A stretch of 39,650 nt of DNA, from the sequence record OR204650.1, one strand, 5' to 3'. Within the stretch, counting starts at the first letter, position 1; every line of letters begins with the position of its first letter. The position numbers and the translations under genes are program-made. Origin of the DNA: Escherichia phage pO91. This document shows, in pieces, positions 2,131-39,650 of this stretch. Under the pieces are notes generated by a model. That model did no database searches. It had not been told where the DNA came from and worked only from the letters and a program-made list of their open reading frames with translations.

Positions 2131-2153
2131 ACTTAACTATCACTATAGGACTC
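2131..2153 (+). promoter_or_regulatory. Phage RNAP promoter-like site upstream of the RNA polymerase gene
   Basis: ACTTAACTATCACTATAGGACTC; matches the window consensus except -14 T and +3 A; followed by GACTCAAGGTC and a GGTCT/AGACC hairpin. Confidence 0.5.
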
Positions 2154-2222
2154 AAGGTCTAAGACTCCAAGTGAAAGACCAAATAGACTTTAAGTGAAAG
2201 ACTAATAACAAGGACTTTAAGT

Positions 2223-4904
2223 ATGAGCGTCATCTCTATTGATAAACAGGACTTCTCTGATGTGTCGAACGCCATTGAGCCGTTTAACCTGCTGGCTGAC
2301 CATTATGGGCAAGACCTTGCAGTCAAGCAGCTTCAGCTTGAGCATGAGGCATACACTGAAGGCGAGCGACGTTTCATCAAGAACCTTGAGCGCCAGACTG
2401 AGCGCGGGGAACTGGCAGACAATCAGGTCGCCAAGCCTTTGATGCAGACTCTGGTCCCTAAGATTGCGCAAGCAGTCAAGGAGTGGCACGAAGGCCAAGA
2501 CGGGAAGCTGTCAACCTCTCGTCCGAGCGTAGCGTTCACCATGTTGAGCACTGAAGAGAAGGCCGTAAAGGACCGCTCTCTGCGCATCTCCTGTGAGTCT
2601 GCTGCGGTTATCATACTGAAGGTCATCCTCTCCAAGTTGGTCAAGCCTGAAGGGATACCGATTACACCGATGGCCTCCGCGATAGGTCGCACACTTGAGG
2701 ATGAAATCCGCTTCGGTCGAATCAGAGACAAGGAGCAGGAGCACTTCAAGAAGGCGATAGCTGAGAACCTGAACAAGCGAGCTGGGGTATCCTATAAGAA
2801 AGCCTACATGCAAGCGGTTGAGGCCTCCATGCTGGAGCAAGGCCAACTGGAAGATGCGTGGGGGACTTGGAGTCCTACCGAGTCGGTACACGTTGGCATC
2901 AAGATGCTTGAGATTGTCATCCAGTCTACACAACTGGTCGAGCTTAAGCGTTATGGTGCTGGTAATGTAGCGGCTGATGTCGAGATGGTCCATCTGTCAG
3001 AATTCTGGGTCAAGAAGATGGCACAACGTGGCTTCAACCTTGCGGGTATCGCGCCAGTCTATCAACCTTGCGTAGTTCCACCAAAGCCGTGGACTGGAGT
3101 CGTAGGCGGTGGTTACTGGGCTAAAGGTCGCAGACCGTTACCATTGATTCGCTTAGGGTCTAAGTCTGCGGTAGCACGTTACGAAGACGTGTACATGCCT
3201 GAAGTCTATGACGCTGTGAACATCATCCAGAATACACCTTGGAAAGTTAACAAGAAGGTTCTGGACGTGGTGAACATGGTCGAGAAGCTGAACAACACGC
3301 CTATTGATGACATCCCTCAGATGGAACCACTGAAGCCTGAGGACTATGCTGGTGAGACCGAGGAGGAACTCAAGGCATGGAAGAAGGCTGCTGCTGGTAT
3401 CTATCGCCGCGAGAAGGCCCGACAGTCACGCAGGTTGTCACTGAGCTTTATCGTTAACCAAGCGAACAAGTTCTCTCAGTTCAAGGCCATCTGGTTCCCG
3501 TACAACATGGACTGGCGCGGTCGCGTCTACGCTGTCCCGATGTTCAACCCTCAGGGTAACGACATGCAGAAGGGTCTCCTGACTCTGGCAGTCGGCAAGC
3601 CTATTGGTGCTGGCGGTTTCAAATGGCTAAAGGTACACGGGGCAAACTGCGCGGGTGTCGATAAAGTAACATTTGAGGAGCGCATAAAGTGGGTGGAGGA
3701 CAACCACGACAACATCATGGCTGCTGCTAAGGAACCTATGGATAGCATTGAGTGGTGGGGCAAGTTAGACTCTCCGTTCTGCTTCCTAGCGTTCTGCTTC
3801 GAGTATGCTGGCGTAATGCACCACGGCTTGTCTTACAACTGCTCGCTGCCGATAGCGTTCGATGGGTCCTGCTCTGGGATTCAGCACTTCAGCGCGATGC
3901 TTCGTGACCACATCGGTGGACATGCAGTAAACCTAACGCCATCAGGTAAGGTCCAAGACATCTACCGCATTGTGTCTGACCGCATCGAGGAGGAGCTTAA
4001 AGTCCTGCTTGTTAGCGGTACGGACAACGAGATGGTAACTCACGAGGACAAGAAAACTGGTGAGATTACCGAGCGCCTCAAGCTGGGGACACGAGAGCTG
4101 GCCCGTCAGTGGCTGACCTACGGTATGTCACGCAAGGTCACTAAGCGTTCGGTCATGACTCTAGCCTACGGGTCGAAAGAGTACGGCTTCGCAGACCAAG
4201 TTTACGAGGACATCGTGATGCCAGCGATTGACTCAGGGTCTGGCGCTATGTTCACCGAACCCAGCCAAGCGTCTCGCTTCATGGCTAAGATGATTTGGGA
4301 AGCTGTGAGTGTGACCGTAGTTGCTGCGGTTGACGCGATGAAATGGCTTCAAGGTGCCGCCAAGCTGCTGGCTGCTGAAGTGAAGGACAAGAAGACTGGC
4401 GAAATCCTGAAGCCATGCCTTCCGGTACACTGGGTCACTCCTGATGGTTTCCCGGTCTGGCAGGAATACCGCAAGAAGGATACCACACGTTTGAACCTGA
4501 TGTTCTTAGGATCATTCAACCTTCAGCCTACAGTCAACAAAGGAACGAAGAAAGAGCTGGACAAGCACAAGCAGGAGTCAGGCATTAGCCCGAACTTCGT
4601 CCACTCACAAGATGGTAGTCACCTCCGCAAGACTGTAGTCCACACGCACCGCAAGTACGGTGTGATGTCATTCGCAGTTATCCACGATAGCTTTGGGACC
4701 ATCCCGGCTGACGCTGAGTATCTGTTCCGTGGTGTCCGTGAGACGATGGTCGAGACCTACCGCGATAACGATGTGCTGCTTGACTTCTACGAGCAGTTCG
4801 AATACCAGCTTCACGAGAGTCAGCGCGACAAGTTGCCTGAGCTTCCGAAGAAAGGTAAACTGAATATCGAAGACATCTTGTCTTCAGACTTTGCATTCGC
4901 TTAA
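2223..4904 (+). CDS. Single-subunit DNA-directed RNA polymerase (T7 gene 1 homolog)
   Basis: 893 aa, collinear with recalled T7 RNAP over the full length (PFN.LADHYG, FPYNMDWRGRVYA, SPFCFLAFCFEY, GSCSGIQHFSAML, HDSFGT, C-terminal FAFA). Confidence 0.97.
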   Translation: MSVISIDKQDFSDVSNAIEPFNLLADHYGQDLAVKQLQLEHEAYTEGERRFIKNLERQTERGELADNQVAKPLMQTLVPKIAQAVKEWHEGQDGKLSTSRPSVAFTMLSTEEKAVKDRSLRISCESAAVIILKVILSKLVKPEGIPITPMASAIGRTLEDEIRFGRIRDKEQEHFKKAIAENLNKRAGVSYKKAYMQAVEASMLEQGQLEDAWGTWSPTESVHVGIKMLEIVIQSTQLVELKRYGAGNVAADVEMVHLSEFWVKKMAQRGFNLAGIAPVYQPCVVPPKPWTGVVGGGYWAKGRRPLPLIRLGSKSAVARYEDVYMPEVYDAVNIIQNTPWKVNKKVLDVVNMVEKLNNTPIDDIPQMEPLKPEDYAGETEEELKAWKKAAAGIYRREKARQSRRLSLSFIVNQANKFSQFKAIWFPYNMDWRGRVYAVPMFNPQGNDMQKGLLTLAVGKPIGAGGFKWLKVHGANCAGVDKVTFEERIKWVEDNHDNIMAAAKEPMDSIEWWGKLDSPFCFLAFCFEYAGVMHHGLSYNCSLPIAFDGSCSGIQHFSAMLRDHIGGHAVNLTPSGKVQDIYRIVSDRIEEELKVLLVSGTDNEMVTHEDKKTGEITERLKLGTRELARQWLTYGMSRKVTKRSVMTLAYGSKEYGFADQVYEDIVMPAIDSGSGAMFTEPSQASRFMAKMIWEAVSVTVVAAVDAMKWLQGAAKLLAAEVKDKKTGEILKPCLPVHWVTPDGFPVWQEYRKKDTTRLNLMFLGSFNLQPTVNKGTKKELDKHKQESGISPNFVHSQDGSHLRKTVVHTHRKYGVMSFAVIHDSFGTIPADAEYLFRGVRETMVETYRDNDVLLDFYEQFEYQLHESQRDKLPELPKKGKLNIEDILSSDFAFA

Positions 4905-5210: not shown

Positions 5211-5233
5211 CCTAAACTATCACTATAGGATTA
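5211..5233 (+). promoter_or_regulatory. Phage RNAP promoter (phi1.1-like)
   Basis: CCTAAACTATCACTATAGGATTA; -16 to +2 match the window consensus. Confidence 0.75.
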
Positions 5234-5276
5234 GACTCAAGGTCATGACTCAAAGTCGTGGCCTTCATGATTAACC
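5231..5276 (+). promoter_or_regulatory. Conserved hairpin element, copy 1 (putative RNase III site, R1.1-like position)
   Basis: TTAGACTCAAGGTCA...TGGCCTTCATGATTAAC; 7-bp stem AAGGTCA/TGGCCTT (one G-U) at 5239-5245 and 5259-5265; same element at 12379 and 35600. Confidence 0.5.
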
Positions 5277-5306
5277 CTAAATAAACACTACTGGAGATTT
5301 AACCAC

Positions 5307-5486
5307 ATGTATCAGAACACTATCAACTTCGAGCGCATCCGTGAACGTCAGCAGACTGAAGATTACATTCCGAAGGGCCGCAAGCTGAACAAGACCAAGC
5401 GTGGCGGTGGTGTCAAGGGTGCTTTCCGTAACGCTGAAGGCAAAGACTCTCTGGTCAACCAAGAGAAATACTTCGTAGGAGCATAA
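5307..5486 (+). CDS. Gene 1.1-like small basic protein (59 aa)
   Basis: GGAG RBS; contains GRKLNKTKR as in recalled T7 gp1.1; under 60 aa so absent from the ORF track; the overlapping minus-strand track ORF is discounted. Confidence 0.7.
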   Translation: MYQNTINFERIRERQQTEDYIPKGRKLNKTKRGGGVKGAFRNAEGKDSLVNQEKYFVGA

Positions 5487-5490
5487 CGCT

Positions 5491-5754
5491 ATGGGCCGAC
5501 TTTATAGTGGCAACCTAAACGCTTTCAAAGCAGCGTGTAACAGGCTCTATCAGTTAGACTTCGCTGTCATATCTCAAGAGTTTCAAGACCATGTGTCACG
5601 CCAAGAGTGCATGAAACTCAGGGTGGAGGACCGAACTGGTAACATCTTCTCGCTTGAGTCCTTCGCACATTACGATGAAGACGTGCTGTATAATACTGCA
5701 ACCAACTACCTAAACGGTATCGCTGACCAACTCGACACATGGAGCAAAGCATAA
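5491..5754 (+). CDS. Gene 1.2 homolog (inhibitor of host dGTP triphosphohydrolase)
   Basis: MGRLYSGNLNAFKAA...L.VEDRTGN...HYDEDVLYN nearly collinear with recalled T7 gp1.2. Confidence 0.9.
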   Translation: MGRLYSGNLNAFKAACNRLYQLDFAVISQEFQDHVSRQECMKLRVEDRTGNIFSLESFAHYDEDVLYNTATNYLNGIADQLDTWSKA

Positions 5755-6794
5755 TGACAACTATCAAAACCAACCCACACCGCGCTGTAGATTACTCTGA
5801 GTCTGGCATTAAGAAGGCACTGGAAGCAGCAGGGTCTCTGGAAGCTGAAGTGAAGTACGACGGTGTGCGGCTAAACCTCATGGTACTGCGTGAAGGTGAG
5901 ACCTACTGGCTGAGCCGTGAGTCGAAACCTCTGCCCGCCTTGGAGTGGATGAACTCTGAGCTAGGAAATGCGTGGACCCAAGCTGAATGGCGATGGTTCC
6001 TGCGTCAAGCTGGTTATGAAGGTATTGGCTTAATGATTGACGGCGAAGTCATGATCAAAGGTGTGGACTTCAACACCTCCTCAGGTATCATCCGAACGAA
6101 GTGGCTCAAGCCTAACAACGAGGAGTTCGCTGAATACTATCCGACGGGCACTGGAAAGAAGCTCCCGTTCTGGGGTGCCCGGTCACGACTTCAGGTTGTG
6201 GTCTACGGTGTCATCGACATGACAATCATTGCTGATCCGAAAGCCGAAGGTCCTATCCATAGCGTCACTCGCCTGAAGGCAGAAGCTATCGTCCCTCTCC
6301 TCCAGAAATACTTCCCGGAAATCGACTGGGTTCTGTCTGAGTCACACACGGTCTATGACCTTGAGTCGCTCAACTCCCTGTACGAAGAGAAGCGTCTGGA
6401 AGGACATGAGGGTCTGGTAGTCAAGGACCCACTTGGTAAATACAAGCGCGGCAAGAAGTCAGGCATGTGGAAAATGAAGCCGGAGGACACCATTGATGGT
6501 ATTGTGGTCGGACTGAATTGGGGGACTGAAGGTCTCGCCAACGAAGGTAAGGTGATTGGGTTCGACGTTCTGCTTGAGAATGGCATGGTAGTTGCTGCTA
6601 ACAATATCTCTCAGGCTATGATGGATGAGTTCACTGAGGCAGTGCGTCACGCTGAGTCAATTGGCATGGGGATGCCTTACACCAACTTTCAGTGTGAAGT
6701 ATCCTACATGGAGATGACACCAGATGGCTCCTTACGTCACCCTAGCTTCAAGTGCTGGCGCGGGACGGAAGATAACCCGACAATTAAGAGCTAA
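5754..6794 (+). CDS. ATP-dependent DNA ligase (T7 gene 1.3 homolog)
   Basis: Adenylation motif KYDGVR, then EGHEGLVVKDP, YKRGKKSGMWKMKPE, PDGSLRHPSF; ATG at 5754 overlaps the gene 1.2 stop. Confidence 0.95.
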   Translation: MTTIKTNPHRAVDYSESGIKKALEAAGSLEAEVKYDGVRLNLMVLREGETYWLSRESKPLPALEWMNSELGNAWTQAEWRWFLRQAGYEGIGLMIDGEVMIKGVDFNTSSGIIRTKWLKPNNEEFAEYYPTGTGKKLPFWGARSRLQVVVYGVIDMTIIADPKAEGPIHSVTRLKAEAIVPLLQKYFPEIDWVLSESHTVYDLESLNSLYEEKRLEGHEGLVVKDPLGKYKRGKKSGMWKMKPEDTIDGIVVGLNWGTEGLANEGKVIGFDVLLENGMVVAANNISQAMMDEFTEAVRHAESIGMGMPYTNFQCEVSYMEMTPDGSLRHPSFKCWRGTEDNPTIKS

Positions 6795-10086: not shown

Positions 10087-10302
10087 ATGATTAAACTTAT
10101 CGAATTTCTCGGTCGTCTGGTGGTGCGTGGCTATCGTCATGCTGCGGTTCTGGAACGAAAAGTAGAAAAGAAGACTGCTGATGGTGCGGCCGAGGCTGCT
10201 GCTATGGCTGACAAGCTGACCATAGCGTCACTGGAAGCTGGCATGAAGGCACGTCAAGCTGATACCAAAGCTGACCAGTTGGCTCAGTTCTTCAAAGACT
10301 AA
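10087..10302 (+). CDS. Hypothetical protein (71 aa)
   Basis: ORF track; GGAGAA RBS; Ala/Lys-rich; sits where T7 carries gene 3.8, but has no HNH motif. Confidence 0.55.
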   Translation: MIKLIEFLGRLVVRGYRHAAVLERKVEKKTADGAAEAAAMADKLTIASLEAGMKARQADTKADQLAQFFKD

Positions 10303-10320
10303 ACTATCACCTTAGGGATT
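10298..10320 (+). promoter_or_regulatory. Degenerate phage promoter-like site
   Basis: ACTAAACTATCACCTTAGGGATT; upstream half matches the consensus, -4 and -3 are substituted (CT for TA). Confidence 0.35.
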
Positions 10321-10366: not shown

Positions 10367-10445
10367 GCCTCCATAGCTCAAGAGGTAGAGCGGCGGGTCT
10401 TTATGGCCTATTGCGATTAGGGTTCGAATCCCCGTGGAGGCGCCA
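10367..10445 (+). tRNA. tRNA-like element (possible tRNA gene or pseudogene; anticodon arm not resolved)
   Basis: 7-bp acceptor stem GCCTCCA/TGGAGGC plus G-CCA tail; D-arm TAGCTCAAGAGGTAGAGC; T-arm TAGGG-TTCGAAT-CCCCG; the 25-nt middle section does not give a canonical anticodon stem. Confidence 0.45.
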
Positions 10446-10456
10446 CTAAGGAGTGA

Positions 10457-12160
<1,704 letters not shown>

Positions 12161-12211
12161 ATGTCAATGCCCTGAGTGCGACTGGAAGTCACCATACGGA
12201 GGACACCATTA

Positions 12212-12376
12212 GTGTTTAAGAAACTTAAAGCTCGCTACCATCGGTTCATGTACAAATGGTGGAGCGATGAGGCAACCTGCCTGTCAAACATTCTAGGAGA
12301 ACAGAGGTTCGACTCTAAGGCATGGAAGAAAGCTAACCGGAAGTTTATGTATCACTTCTTGCGTACAGACTTCTAG
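12212..12376 (+). CDS. Hypothetical small protein (54 aa, gene 4.x position)
   Basis: In frame with track ORF 12176..12376; GGAGGA RBS 8 nt before GTG at 12212; start uncertain. Confidence 0.4.
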   Translation: MFKKLKARYHRFMYKWWSDEATCLSNILGEQRFDSKAWKKANRKFMYHFLRTDF

Positions 12377-12378
12377 GT

Positions 12379-12423
12379 CTAGACTCAAGGTCATTCATAT
12401 AGAGTGGCCTTTATGATTAGACT
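12379..12423 (+). promoter_or_regulatory. Conserved hairpin element, copy 2 (putative RNase III site, R4.7-like position)
   Basis: TAGACTCAAGGTCA...TGGCCTTTATGATTAGAC; stem AAGGTCA/TGGCCTT at 12387-12393 and 12405-12411. Confidence 0.5.
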
Positions 12424-12439
12424 AAACGGAGGATTAACC

Positions 12440-14611
12440 ATGTTTGACCTTAAGGATATTTGGGGTTCGGACATCGAGACAAACGGTCTCCTTGACACCG
12501 TGTCCCAGTTCCATTGTGGGGTCCTGATTAATGCCGAGTCGAATGAGACCCTTAAGTATGGGGTAGCGCCGATGGTCGGTATCGTCGGTGGCTTCAAAGA
12601 GTATGTTAATAAAGTGGAAGAGATTGCCGCAACACCTACAGGTATGCTGGTATTCCACAACGGTATCAACTATGACGTCCCGGCTATTGACAAGCTGAAA
12701 CGTCTGTACTTTGGGAAACGCTTTAACTTCCCGAAACACAAGATGATTGATACCTTGGTGTTGGGACGCTTGATGTATCCCAACATTAAGTTCTCAGACA
12801 TGGGCGCAGTGAAAGCTGGTCGTCTACCGCCTAAGATGATGGGACGCCAGTCTCTTGAGGCTTGGGGTTATCGTCTCGGTGAGATGAAGGGTGAGTACAA
12901 ACACGATTACGTTGCCAAGTGCAAGGCAGAAGGTATCGAATATAAGGCTGGGGATGAATGGTTGTTCCCGTCTCAGGAGATGCTGGACTATAACGTTCAA
13001 GACGTTGTGGTCACACTGGCGTTGTTCAAGAAGTTCCTGACTGACAAGTATTACTTCCAGTCTGAACAGTTCGCTTTCGACCAGATTTATGCGTTGCGTC
13101 TGGAACATGATGCTGCGTGGACCTGTGCGAAGATGGAACGTAACGGCTATCCAATGAACACCGAGATGGTCGAAGGCTTGTATCGTGAACTTACAGTCAA
13201 ACGTGCAGAGCTGCTGGACAAGCTGCGTTCGACTTTCGGTAGCTGGTACGCACCAAAGGGAGGCAAGGAGTTCTTCAGGCATCCACGGACAGGTAAGGAC
13301 CTTCCGAAGTATCCGCGAGTCGTGTATCCTAAGGTCGGTGGCATCTTTAAGAAGCCGAAGAACAAAGCTCAACGCTTAGGTCTTGAACCTTGTGATCGCG
13401 ATACGCGAGACACGATGGAAGGAGCGCCTTTCACGCCAATCACTTACGTTGAGTTTAATCCGGGAAGCGGAGACCACTTGGCGAAAGTCTTGATGGAGCG
13501 TGGCTGGGAGCCTGTGGACTTCACTGACACCGGGAAACCTGTAGTCGATGACGAGACGTTAGAACACGTTAAGTTACCAGACGCAGAGGCTCAGGCTTGC
13601 GTAGAGCTGGTCCGTGAGTATCTGGTAGTCCAGAAGCGCATTGGTCAGGCGGCTGAGGGTAAGAACGCATGGTTGAAACTTGTAGGTCCAGACGGACGTA
13701 TGCATGGTTCAATCAACCCCTGCGGGGCAGTAACCGGACGTGCGACTCATAGCTCACCAAACATGGCTCAGGTCCCGGCTAACGGTGCTCCGTATGGTGA
13801 GACTTGCCGTGGTGCTTTCGGTGCAGCATGGAACAAGAAGGACGGTAAGCCAGACCCTTGGATTCAAGTTGGTGTGGATGCCTCAGGTCTTGAGCTTCGT
13901 TGTCTTGGGAACCGAGCGGCTCCGTTTGATGGTGGTGCATATGCGAAGACTGTGGTCGAAGGTGACATCCACTGGGCAAACGCAGTCAACGCTGGGTTAG
14001 CACCTAACGTCCCACGCGATAAGTCTAACCACGACCATGAGGCTTTCCGTAACAACGCTAAGACGTTCATCTATGCGTTCCTGTATGGTGCAGGGGCCGC
14101 TAAGATTGGACTGATAGTAGGAGGTGGTAAGAAGGAGGGTTCAGCTCTCATGAAGAAATTCATTGAGGGTACACCAGCCATCAAGGACCTCAGGGAAGCT
14201 GTGAGTAATACGTTAATCTCAGACTCGAAGTGGGTGGACGGTGAGAATATCGTCAAGTGGAAACGCCGTTGGCTGCGTGGACTTGATGGTCGCCGCATTC
14301 ACATCCGGTCGCCACACTCAGCACTGAACGCCTTACTTCAAGGCGATGGTGCGGTAGTCTGTAAAACGTGGTTCACTTGGCTTGAGAGGAACCTAGAAGC
14401 TAAAGGCTACGTGCATGGCTGGGATGGTGACTTTGCGATTATGGCTTTTGTCCATGATGAAGTTCAGGTTGCCGCAAGGACTATGGAAATAGCTGAGGAC
14501 ATCGTTCGGGTGGCGCAGGCCACAATGCGAGAGGTTGGAGAGTTCTATAACTTTAAATGTGTCCTTGATACAGAAGGTAAGATTGGACCTACGTGGCGCG
14601 AATGTCACTAA
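12440..14611 (+). CDS. DNA polymerase (T7 gene 5 homolog)
   Basis: DIETNGLL exonuclease motif, FHNG..YDVPA, Pol A motifs; collinear with recalled T7 gp5; GGAGG RBS before ATG at 12440. Confidence 0.96.
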   Translation: MFDLKDIWGSDIETNGLLDTVSQFHCGVLINAESNETLKYGVAPMVGIVGGFKEYVNKVEEIAATPTGMLVFHNGINYDVPAIDKLKRLYFGKRFNFPKHKMIDTLVLGRLMYPNIKFSDMGAVKAGRLPPKMMGRQSLEAWGYRLGEMKGEYKHDYVAKCKAEGIEYKAGDEWLFPSQEMLDYNVQDVVVTLALFKKFLTDKYYFQSEQFAFDQIYALRLEHDAAWTCAKMERNGYPMNTEMVEGLYRELTVKRAELLDKLRSTFGSWYAPKGGKEFFRHPRTGKDLPKYPRVVYPKVGGIFKKPKNKAQRLGLEPCDRDTRDTMEGAPFTPITYVEFNPGSGDHLAKVLMERGWEPVDFTDTGKPVVDDETLEHVKLPDAEAQACVELVREYLVVQKRIGQAAEGKNAWLKLVGPDGRMHGSINPCGAVTGRATHSSPNMAQVPANGAPYGETCRGAFGAAWNKKDGKPDPWIQVGVDASGLELRCLGNRAAPFDGGAYAKTVVEGDIHWANAVNAGLAPNVPRDKSNHDHEAFRNNAKTFIYAFLYGAGAAKIGLIVGGGKKEGSALMKKFIEGTPAIKDLREAVSNTLISDSKWVDGENIVKWKRRWLRGLDGRRIHIRSPHSALNALLQGDGAVVCKTWFTWLERNLEAKGYVHGWDGDFAIMAFVHDEVQVAARTMEIAEDIVRVAQATMREVGEFYNFKCVLDTEGKIGPTWRECH

Positions 14612-35141: not shown

Positions 35142-35336
35142 ATGATTGAGTTAGACTTCAAGAATGAGGTCCTTAAAGCCTCTCCTATCGTCGGGACCGC
35201 TGCGGCTGATGGTGCCAGTCGGTTCTTCTTCGGACTTACACTGAACGAATGGTTCTACGTTGCAGTTATCGCGTACACCGTTGTCCAGATTGGTGTGCTA
35301 GTCTACAAAACGATTAAAGGAGGTGGTAAAACATGA
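35142..35336 (+). CDS. Holin (T7 gene 17.5 homolog)
   Basis: LDFKNEVLKASPIVGT..AD...RFFFGLTLNEWFYVAVIAYTVVQIG matches recalled T7 gp17.5. Confidence 0.92.
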   Translation: MIELDFKNEVLKASPIVGTAAADGASRFFFGLTLNEWFYVAVIAYTVVQIGVLVYKTIKGGGKT

Positions 35337-35596
35337 CGCAGATGGACTTAGAGAAGTTCCTCTTAATGCTAGATACTGAACGTGCTCGACTCATGTTGCA
35401 AGACTTACGTGACGACTCTAAGCGTTCACCTCAGCTTTACAACGCCATTGAGAAGCTACTGGCTCGTCACAACTTTGTGTTAAGCAAGGTGTCTGTGGAC
35501 GAGAAGACGCTGGCTGATATGGAGGCCCTGAACGCAGAGTACGATAAGGTGCTTTCAGCGACTGAGGATAATGACACCGGGTATGGTGTTCAATAA
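35333..35596 (+). CDS. Terminase small subunit (T7 gene 18 homolog)
   Basis: FLLMLDT, RSPQLYNAIEKLLARH match recalled T7 gp18. Confidence 0.88.
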   Translation: MTQMDLEKFLLMLDTERARLMLQDLRDDSKRSPQLYNAIEKLLARHNFVLSKVSVDEKTLADMEALNAEYDKVLSATEDNDTGYGVQ

Positions 35597-35599
35597 GTG

Positions 35600-35646
35600 T
35601 TAGACTCAAGGTCATTACTATATGTAGTGGCCTTTATGGTTAACAC
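35600..35646 (+). promoter_or_regulatory. Conserved hairpin element, copy 3 (putative RNase III site, R18.5-like position)
   Basis: TAGACTCAAGGTCA...TGGCCTTTATGGTTAAC; stem AAGGTCA/TGGCCTT at 35608-35614 and 35628-35634. Confidence 0.5.
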
Positions 35647-35697
35647 TAACTAGTGGAGGCGACTCTACGTGAAATCTGATAAACCGGGAGGGCATCT

Positions 35698-36135
35698 ATG
35701 CTCGAATTTTTAAAGAGAGCGGCTCCGTGGTTACTTGCAGCAGTGATGTTTGCTGGTGGCTACCACACCGCTAACAATAAGTGGGAGGCTAAGGTCAATG
35801 CAGAATACACCTCGAATCTTAAGGCATCGGAAGATACAAGGCTTGCTGTCCAAGCTGAAGTCAACAAAGTGTCCAGACGGTTTCAGGACGAAATGTCCTC
35901 GCTGGAAGGCAGCACTGATAGGATTATTGCTGACCTTCAGTCTGACAATAAGCGGTTGCGCGTCAAAGTCAACACCTCAGGTCTCACCGAGTCCGATATC
36001 AGTCGATGCTTCCCTAATGGTAGAGTCGAATTACACGAGTCAACTTCTAGAAGTCTTATCGAAATAACCCAGAAGGCAGACTTAAAGGAGAAGGCTTTAC
36101 AGGATACCATAAGGAGGTTGCAGGGTGCTAAGTGA
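35698..36135 (+). CDS. Rz-like i-spanin (T7 gene 18.5 homolog)
   Basis: MLEFLKRAAPWLLA, LEGSTDRIIADLQSDNKRLRVKV, LQDTIRRLQ match recalled T7 gp18.5. Confidence 0.92.
   Translation: MLEFLKRAAPWLLAAVMFAGGYHTANNKWEAKVNAEYTSNLKASEDTRLAVQAEVNKVSRRFQDEMSSLEGSTDRIIADLQSDNKRLRVKVNTSGLTESDISRCFPNGRVELHESTSRSLIEITQKADLKEKALQDTIRRLQGAK
35798..36067 (+). CDS. Rz1-like o-spanin lipoprotein embedded in the +1 frame of Rz (T7 gene 18.7 homolog)
   Basis: PRWKAALIGLLLTFSLTISGCAS lipobox and SVDASLMVE match recalled T7 Rz1; GGAGG 9 nt before ATG 35798; wholly inside the Rz gene. Confidence 0.85.
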   Translation: MQNTPRILRHRKIQGLLSKLKSTKCPDGFRTKCPRWKAALIGLLLTFSLTISGCASKSTPQVSPSPISVDASLMVESNYTSQLLEVLSK

Positions 36136-36511
36136 TTTAGTATATGAAGACGGGAAGCTGCTTAAAGGTGGGAAGGAGGTGGGTCACATCTCTAACCACG
36201 GCTACAGGCGCTTCAAGATAAACGGAAAGAACTATTTGGTCCACCGCTTGATTTACAAGATGCACAATCCTGAGTTCGACATTCTATCTGAACTGGTTGT
36301 GGACCACATCAACCGCAACCGTCTGGACAACATGATTGAGAACCTAAGGGCTGTGACCACGGCGGAGAATAACAGGAACCACGCTCCACCACTAGGTGTA
36401 TCATTCTGTAAACAGACTGGTAAATGGAAGGCGATTCATCCCCGGTGGCTTGGACGTTTTGATACAAAAGAGGAGGCCCTTAATGCAGTCAACGCCGCAA
36501 GACAGGAATAA
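36125..36511 (+). CDS. HNH_3-type homing endonuclease with AP2-like DNA-binding domain (paralog B1)
   Basis: [30 protein letters not shown] core followed by [28 protein letters not shown]; between Rz and large terminase; start uncertain (GTG 36125 or GTG 36178 after GGAAGGAGG). Confidence 0.8.
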
Positions 36512-39243: not shown

Positions 39244-39404
39244 TGCAATCATGGTAACGCTTCATGAGCGGAAGACCTAAGGTCAGTTCATAGCTGACGC
39301 TACTCTACTGACCTTAGCTACTGTAGTCAAGGACTTTAGGTAACACCTTAATAGAAGCTCACTTAGGGTCATCCTACTTATTGGTCTATCCTAGTGTCGC
39401 CTGA

Positions 39405-39441
39405 CCTACGGTCCTTGACCTACAGTAGCTGCCACCTACAG
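39405..39441. repeat. Right-end copies of the CCTACAGT-family short repeat
   Basis: CCTACGGT at 39405, CCTACAGT at 39418 and 39434; same family as the left-end array. Confidence 0.55.
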
Positions 39442-39478
39442 TCTTCGATTAGTTTTGGACCAAAAGTTTGAGACCACA

Positions 39479-39650
39479 TCTCACAGTTCAAGAACCTCAA
39501 GTCTCCCCCATAGGCCCTCTTTCAGTCCAGACCAAGGATGGCCCTACCTCCAGTCTATCACAAGGTTAGACAGACGGTCAAGACTTCAGGTCAACGATAG
39601 GTCATGACGATAGGTGGTGGTGGAGACGATAGGTTGGGACTATGGGTCTG
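39479..39650. repeat. Terminal-repeat-like region (single collapsed copy; probable physical genome end near 39479)
   Basis: TCTCACAGTTCAAGAACCTCAAGTCTCCCCCATAGG resembles the first bases of the recalled T7 genome; window end joined to window start resembles the recalled end of the T7 terminal repeat. Confidence 0.4.

Follow-up and report, generated by a model that had tools for sequence, protein, structure and literature searches.

By their sequence, three hairpins in the genome of Escherichia phage pO91, together with two weaker ones in its early region, are very probably sense-strand signals for the host RNase III, orthologous to the R1.1, R4.7, R18.5, R0.3 and R0.5 sites of T7 and T3. Recognised by homology, they are a textbook element, here in a genus whose K1F reference records leave it unannotated. 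The window, that is, the whole stretch of pO91 DNA that we analysed (39,650 bp), is an almost complete K1F-like Kayfunavirus (T7-family) genome with all genes on the + strand. The 3-kb segment around the focal hairpin, which lies just upstream of the DNA polymerase gene (gene 5), shares 95% identity with many Kayfunavirus genomes, among them those of Escherichia phages YZ1 and K1F. The hairpins match no Rfam family at the gathering threshold, the sole Rfam match in pO91 being a tRNA (10367-10442). Full-text literature searches for RNase III sites in K1F returned nothing relevant; an earlier description in print is possible.

Five hairpins of the T7 RNase III site family

The preliminary description of this DNA had claimed three conserved copies of a hairpin. 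Indeed, the degenerate pattern TAGACTCAAGGTCA-N(9-16)-TGGCCTTYATGRTTA has exactly three matches in pO91, all on the + strand (5232-5273, 12380-12419 and 35601-35642), and none in 100 dinucleotide-preserving shuffles. We trained a covariance model on seven T7 RNase III sites only (NC_001604) and searched the whole of pO91 with it on both strands, with filters off. The cleavage coordinates of the T7 sites are reportedly those of Dunn and Studier (1983). When the sites were counted through in the extracts of T7 R0.3, R0.5 and R1.1, the cleavage coordinate fell on the same position of the UAU|GA motif in each, which argues that these T7 coordinates are right. In the alignment of the seven T7 sites, 94% of cells are paired and double changes are found in 10 of the 17 pairs.

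The three best matches of this T7-only model in pO91 are the hairpins at 35597-35650 (52.2 bits), 12376-12427 (48.6 bits) and 5228-5281 (41.7 bits), with E values from 2e-12 to approximately 3e-9. All three copies match the profile of the experimentally defined T7 sites jointly in sequence and structure and belong to the same family. These scores, with which the synteny agrees, support the earlier interpretation of the elements as putative RNase III sites. The next matches are at 1512-1564 (32.2 bits) and 572-630 (29.2 bits), and the rest of pO91 scores at most 12.5 bits. The three sites counted earlier are therefore present, but the covariance model finds five of the same family. In the T3 control (NC_003298), the model recovered eight of the ten stem-loops annotated as 'RNase III recognition site', at the annotated coordinates, and is therefore specific. 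It also found T7 R6.5, which had been left out of the training set, and gave no other match at E < 0.1 in T7, T3 or K1F. No site of the R6.5, R1 or R1.3 type was found in pO91 with this model, the R3.8 and R13 types lying outside its coverage.

Each of the three best copies is a sense-strand RNA hairpin of approximately 52 nt, larger than first described. All three consist of a 7-bp lower stem, a 4/5-nt internal loop, an upper stem of 10-11 bp and a 5-nt apical loop, which together make about two helical turns, the internal loop between the stems being asymmetric. The preliminary description had proposed a 7-bp stem and a loop of variable length (11-13 nt). Such a stem exists, but it understates the structure, as three to four further pairs form inside the supposed loop and the flanks supply the 7-bp lower stem. 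These lower stems are drawn from non-conserved sequence (GGAUUAG/UUAACCC, GGUCUAG/UUAGACU and GUGUUAG/UUAACAC at the 5228, 12376 and 35597 sites, respectively). The internal loop has ACUC on its 5' side and YAUGR on its 3' side (CAUGA, UAUGA or UAUGG), and in the alignment of 27 sites described below the loop and proximal-stem sequence ACUC...AAGGUC / GGCCUU...UAUGA is kept in the three copies. Pair 9 is U-A, U-A and G-C in the three copies, a compensatory difference. A helix of 11 bp is the minimal reactive one for RNase III, and the role of the internal loop has been described (PMC1540722).

Folding of the sense strand gave energies of -20.2, -21.2 and -23.4 kcal/mol for the 5228, 12376 and 35597 sites (z = -4.35, -3.69 and -4.87, respectively). 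In the same order, the antisense strand gave -17.6, -11.4 and -12.5 kcal/mol (z = -2.4, -1.2 and -1.5), and the best antisense covariance-model score in pO91 was 12.5 bits. The antisense strand folds poorly because several of the pairs are G-U. Pairing is kept by compensatory change in the transcribed sense only. Fold prediction and covariation analysis, which the preliminary description had proposed, are both in line with it, with sense z scores of -3.7 to -4.9 and compensatory changes across relatives.

The focal copy, a putative R4.7-type RNase III site, occupies 12376-12427 on the + strand (E = 2.4e-11). Its lower stem pairs 12376-12382 with 12417-12423, its internal loop is formed by ACUC (12383-12386) and UAUGA (12412-12416), and its upper stem pairs 12387-12396 with 12402-12411 around the apical loop AUAUA. 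The predicted cut is after U12414, 25 nt upstream of the gene 5 ATG at 12440. The first base of the hairpin is the last base of the stop codon of the upstream small ORF (12374-12376).

The R1.1-type site (5228-5281, + strand; E = 2.7e-9) has an upper stem of 11 bp (5239-5249 with 5255-5265), the apical loop UCAAA and a predicted cut after U5268. Its first base, 5228, is the +1 G of a phage RNA polymerase promoter at 5213-5229 (+ strand), so that the transcript opens with the 5' strand of the hairpin. The promoter sequence, TAAACTATCACTATAGG, occurs 11 times in pO91 against 0.1 expected. Downstream of this site lie a small gene from 5307 and then gene 1.2. The R18.5-type site (35597-35650, + strand; E = 2e-12) also has an 11-bp upper stem (35608-35618 with 35624-35634), here with the loop UAUAU and a predicted cut after U35637. 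It lies directly 3' of the stop codon (35594-35596) of gene 18, the small terminase gene, and the Rz-like spanin gene follows from 35698.

The two extra sites are more diverged. The one at the R0.3 position (572-630, + strand; E = 1.4e-5; -19.7 kcal/mol, z = -2.9) lies directly before the ocr-like gene 0.3 (ATG at 649), has a predicted cut after 617 (AAU|GA) and is orthologous to K1F 710-768. The other, an R0.5-like candidate in the early region (1512-1564, + strand; E = 1.8e-6; -19.0 kcal/mol, z = -3.0), has orthologues at K1F 1769-1821 and Ro103C3lw 1782-1834. It is the least certain member because its internal loop is ACGA / AAAGA, not ACUC / UAUGA.

A fourth, partial copy after the promoter before gene 1 had also been claimed. 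The 11-mer on which this rested, GACTCAAGGTC, is indeed found at 2149-2159, directly 3' of the promoter at 2133-2149 and starting at its position +2, but it has no matching 3' arm and gives no model match at E ≤ 10 with filters off. As a real site the copy can be rejected, its fold (z = -1.17) being no better than that of shuffled sequences. As far as its apical segment (GACUCCAAGUG) it resembles the promoter-plus-R1.1 leader, with GGACUCAAGGUC..GACUCCAAGUG here and GGAUUAGACUCAAGGUC..GACUCAAAGUCGUG there, and its 3' arm is AGACC-AAAU, not UGGCCUU-YAUGA. No orphan 3' arm matching the copy was found anywhere in pO91. The 11-mer also has exact reverse-complement copies at 6357 and 18336, in the ligase gene and gene 8. 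As these are kilobases distant and the GAC-N5-GTC bias of the whole genome, described below, accounts for them, they were rejected as long-range pairing partners. From its sequence, we read 2149-2190 (+ strand) as a degenerate paralogue of the promoter-plus-R1.1 leader, a decayed duplicate that is not a predicted RNase III substrate. The segment 2133-2222 as a whole comprises the promoter directly 5' of the RNA polymerase gene, the decayed leader copy and two AAGTGAAAGAC repeats. In T7 and T3 this place is taken by the RNase III site R1, a type that the Kayfunaviruses do not have.

Gene context and conservation of the sites

The gene positions that the preliminary description had assigned to the hairpins, before gene 1.1, the DNA polymerase gene and Rz at the places of T7 R1.1, R4.7 and R18.5, agree with the PHROG neighbours in pO91 and with the order of genes in T3 and T7. 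Around the first site we found the RNA polymerase gene (2223-4904), a small ORF, the hairpin, an ORF of 59 aa (5307-5486) and gene 1.2, encoding the dGTPase inhibitor (5491-5754). The second lies between a small ORF ending at 12376 and the DNA polymerase gene (12440-14611), and the third between the small terminase gene (35333-35596) and the Rz-like spanin gene (35698-36135). When these PHROG assignments were compared with the T3 and T7 feature tables, the flanking genes were the same. T3 has the order gene 1, 1.05, promoter phi1.1, R1.1, 1.1 and 1.2, and pO91 correspondingly has gene 1, a small ORF, a promoter, the hairpin, a small ORF and gene 1.2. T3 R4.7 (12970-13018) likewise stands immediately before gene 5, and in both T3 and T7 R18.5 is found between genes 18 and 18.5; the T7-only model detects T3 R1.1, R4.7 and R18.5 alike. 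As pO91 has no gene 4.7, its R4.7-type site directly adjoins gene 5.

Stable hairpins just 3' of stop codons could also terminate or attenuate transcription by the RNA polymerase of the host or the phage. We regard this as hardly credible. There is no U-run 3' of any of the three hairpins, where the sequences are ACCCUAAAUAAA, GACUAAACGG and ACACUAACUAG, and no terminator-like site was found in 12200-12600. Moreover, one of the hairpins starts at the +1 of a promoter, and the essential genes 5 and 19 lie downstream. The class of intrinsic terminators, in which a G+C-rich stem is followed by a U-run, does not accommodate the three elements.

Within the family of RNase III sites, the likeness to T7 is close. 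T7 shares with pO91 the consensus CUCAAGGUC...GUGGCCUUUAUGAUU, the gene neighbourhoods and a layout with the 4/5-nt internal loop between upper and lower stems. T7 R1.1 has the same first eight upper-stem pairs (AAGGUCAU/GUGGCCUU) and the same ACUC/UAUGA loop as the pO91 copies; like the pO91 5228 site, T7 R1.1 also begins at the +1 of a phage promoter (phi1.1A). T7 R0.5 is nearly identical overall (GAUAGACUCAAGGUC...GUGGCCUUUAUGAUUAUC; in full GAUAGACUCAAGGUCGCUCCUAGCGAGUGGCCUUUAUGAUUAUC), and T7 R1.1, R4.7, R18.5 and R0.3 are close variants of it. The lower-stem and apical sequences differ between T7 and pO91, with compensation. T7 has eight canonical sites and pO91 has five, without those of the R1, R1.3 and R6.5 types, whereas ten are annotated in T3, including R1, R1.3, R3.8, R6.5 and R13. 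K1F carries orthologous hairpins at 5569-5622, 12856-12907 and 36449-36502, plus three early ones, all of them unannotated in both of its GenBank records. One of these early hairpins is a sixth site (1033-1085), tied to gp0.2, that pO91 does not have.

Across 27 sites from four phages (pO91, K1F, T7 and T3), 94.3% of cells are paired and 12 of the 17 pairs show double changes. The covariation score of this alignment is 0.608, compared to 0.225 when shuffled and at most 0.123 with slid partners. All 23 close relatives in IMG/VR have an R18.5-type site directly 3' of gene 18. The apical stem of this site is variable in both sequence and length with the pairing kept, including one compensated C-G to U-A change. 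Of 23 K1F-like contigs, 20 carry the focal site just 5' of gene 5, with the compensations A-U to G-C and C-G to A-U, and the three relatives without it have another gene inserted at that place. In the orthologue sets of both the R18.5-type and the focal site, the loop sequence YAUGR is under selection beyond pairing alone. The family also holds its positions in the divergent Kayfunavirus Ro103C3lw, Pektosvirus PP47 and a Klebsiella Teetrevirus, and genera of the Studiervirinae have the consensus of the T7 RNase III sites in common. In 12 more distant T7-like IMG/VR contigs (gp18 51-56% identical), no T7-type site was detected after gene 18. The element is therefore not universal, and either the family or its consensus is limited to certain lineages.

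This covariation also bears on the possibility that the conserved sequence acts as DNA, the RNA hairpin being secondary. The 5' arm, GACTCAAGGTC, is an instance of a palindrome, GAC-N5-GTC, that occurs 76 times in pO91 against approximately 17 expected, and the paralogous copies might serve as joints for the recombination of cassettes: pO91 is without the gp0.2 segment of K1F, the junction falling inside the common 3' part of two paralogous sites, and in a Klebsiella Teetrevirus two R0.5-type sites flank a small ORF. However, the G-U wobble pairs function in sense RNA only and the compensatory changes keep an RNA helix, both of which contradict a role at the level of DNA. In addition, the 3' arm and the loop lie outside the palindrome, and T7 and T3 carry the same sites without GAC-N5-GTC enrichment. 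We therefore consider a primary DNA role extremely unlikely.

Predicted processing of the pO91 messages

By analogy with T7, we infer that the pO91 sites are cleaved, where each cut would fall and how cleavage would act on message stability and translation. In the long polycistronic phage RNA, each element would fold into a quasi-continuous helix of approximately 20 bp, in which the asymmetric ACUC / YAUGR loop would let only one strand engage the catalytic site of the RNase III dimer. A single cut is predicted on the 3' side of this loop, at UAU|GA, after 5268, 12414 and 35637, as positioned by alignment with the T7 sites. The upstream message (the gene 1 region, the gene 4 region or gene 18) would then keep the upper hairpin at its 3' end, where it would block 3'-to-5' exonucleases. 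The downstream message (gene 1.1/1.2, DNA polymerase or the Rz spanin) would gain a short, defined and unstructured 5' leader before its Shine-Dalgarno sequence; the predicted leaders are 38, 25 and 60 nt ahead of the start codons at 5307, 12440 and 35698, respectively. Transcripts from the promoter at 5213-5229 open with the hairpin, and cleavage would therefore trim their first 41 nt. Such roles have precedents, as internal loops confine RNase III cleavage to a single phosphodiester and the hairpins left at the 3' ends shield the RNA from 3'-5' exonucleases (PMC1540722; PMC3867540).

It is also conceivable, though very unlikely in our judgement, that RNase III or some other double-strand RNA-binding protein binds the hairpins but does not cut them, or that they are passive 3' stability or translation-modulating structures in unprocessed RNA. 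Some motifs permit RNase III binding and yet inhibit cleavage (PMC1540722). Furthermore, in the minimum free energy fold of 12370-12432, CUUC (12370-12373) pairs with GGAG (12428-12431), the Shine-Dalgarno sequence of gene 5, which could sequester it. This helix is weak, however, at 4 bp, and selection maintains the YAUGR loop sequence as well as the pairing. Moreover, the hairpins share their internal loop and the first 8 bp of their upper stem with T7 R1.1, a standard cleaved substrate used for E. coli RNase III by the Nicholson laboratory (PMC1540722). Given this identity to cleaved T7 sites, a role in binding only or in masking the Shine-Dalgarno sequence is unnecessary. The CUUC-GGAG pairing at the focal site further implies that RNase III cleavage could unmask the ribosome-binding site of the DNA polymerase gene.

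For RNase III processing, the preferred reading, one difference from T7 and T3 may matter. No counterpart of their gp0.7 protein kinase is evident in pO91, which has only small ORFs between gene 0.3 and gene 1 (1155-2223). The gp0.7 kinase stimulates RNase III in T7 infection (PMC4858673). As the kinase is apparently missing, the efficiency of processing in pO91 could differ from that in T7.

The value of these sites is mainly one of annotation: five RNA processing signals with predicted cut sites, which are unmarked in the K1F records. Knowledge of RNase III and of T7 gene expression is unchanged by them. The engineering of K1F-like therapeutic or synthetic phages should respect these sites, for example when a payload is inserted beside genes 1.1, 5 or 18.5.

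A spaced palindrome, the gp0.2 cassette and a tRNA-like element

The 11-mer GACTCAAGGTC has 18 near-matches in pO91, where 1-3.5 are expected even under an order-5 Markov model. This excess is due to the spaced palindrome GAC-N5-GTC, of which pO91 has 76 copies against 16.7 expected; most other spacings give 10-26 copies and N3 only 1. K1F has 80 copies and Ro103C3lw 94, while T7, T3, PP47 and a Teetrevirus have 11-16. Examples in pO91 are found at 179, 6357, 11314, 18336, 30234 and 38902, with arrays at 50-160 and 39404-39647. The genome ends carry the motif arrays ACCTACAGT and ACGATAGGT, and the terminal-repeat unit of T7 and T3, ACCTAAAGT, is of the same class.

Among spaced dinucleotides in pO91, the core of the palindrome, AC-N5-GT, gives the strongest signal (412 copies against 183 expected). 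Its coding DNA contains 312 copies, whereas shuffling of synonymous codons leaves 160 ± 9.7 (z = 15.7; z = 0.6-2.5 at control spacings). The core is enriched in all three codon phases and 3.6-fold in non-coding DNA, evenly along the genome bar the tail-spike gene 17 and the capsid gene 10. Its defining bases are more conserved than those of control spacings, and its logo is strand-symmetric. Enrichment is approximately 2.25-fold in Kayfunavirus and approximately 1.5-fold in T7, T3, Pektosvirus PP47, Teetrevirus and Vibrio ICP3; the spike is absent from Pseudomonas Pifdecavirus, SP6, lambda and E. coli DNA.

Several explanations of this signal were rejected. Synonymous-codon shuffling rules out an effect of codon usage or protein sequence, the enrichment in all phases rules out a codon-phase artefact, and the absence of the spike from E. 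coli DNA rules out a property of the host genome. Primase pentamers of the T7 type do not fit the flanks. RNA mini-hairpins were also rejected, given the strand symmetry of the logo and the nearly random pairing outside the core. A literature search found no publication on the AC-N5-GT motif.

We raise, as a tentative and rather improbable idea, that the hairpin 5' arm (GAC-TCAAG-GTC) is part of an undescribed, strand-symmetric DNA motif, (G)AC-Y-W-W-W-R-GT(C), under selection all along the genome (approximately 410 copies) and in the arrays at its ends. RNase III sites would then be constrained both as RNA and as DNA, and a dimeric DNA-binding factor or a DNA process such as packaging, ejection or replication would read the motif in enterobacterial T7-like phages. 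In a milder version of the same idea, the paralogous hairpins would be homologous recombination joints that swap small cassettes, e.g. gp0.2. Separately, all seven Studiervirinae genomes searched (pO91, K1F, Ro103C3lw, T7, T3, PP47 and Klebsiella phage 6996) are almost devoid of GAC-N3-GTC, with 0-1 copies where 9-22 are expected. This scarcity suggests that a host recognition sequence, restriction-type (Tth111I-like) or other, is avoided.

Comparison of pO91 572-648 with K1F 710-1113 showed that a segment of approximately 320 bp bearing gp0.2 is missing from pO91. Two paralogous RNase III sites have their 3' part (CTGAnTGATAGTCACTAAC) in common, and the breakpoint lies within it; the sequence suggests that the gp0.2 cassette was gained or lost by recombination between the hairpins.

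At the place of T7/T3 R3.8, pO91 has instead a tRNA-like element (10367-10445, + strand), between a promoter at 10300-10316 and the start of gene 4 at 10460. It scores 35.9 bits with the Rfam tRNA model, and ARAGORN reports it as 'tRNA-Stop, anticodon tta'. The acceptor stem and D arm are perfect and the CCA is encoded, but the anticodon arm is aberrant and the T-stem has a mismatch. The element is found in 34 phage records, almost all of them Kayfunavirus, where it is annotated as tRNA-OTHER, tRNA-Thr or pseudo. Only some Kayfunaviruses have it, and it is absent from K1F and Ro103C3lw. A pattern scan of IMG/VR for the element returned one unrelated tRNA-Glu locus only. Compared with other phages, its acceptor stem shows a compensatory change. 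The element may be a decayed tRNA or, alternatively, a processing signal of the RNase P type.
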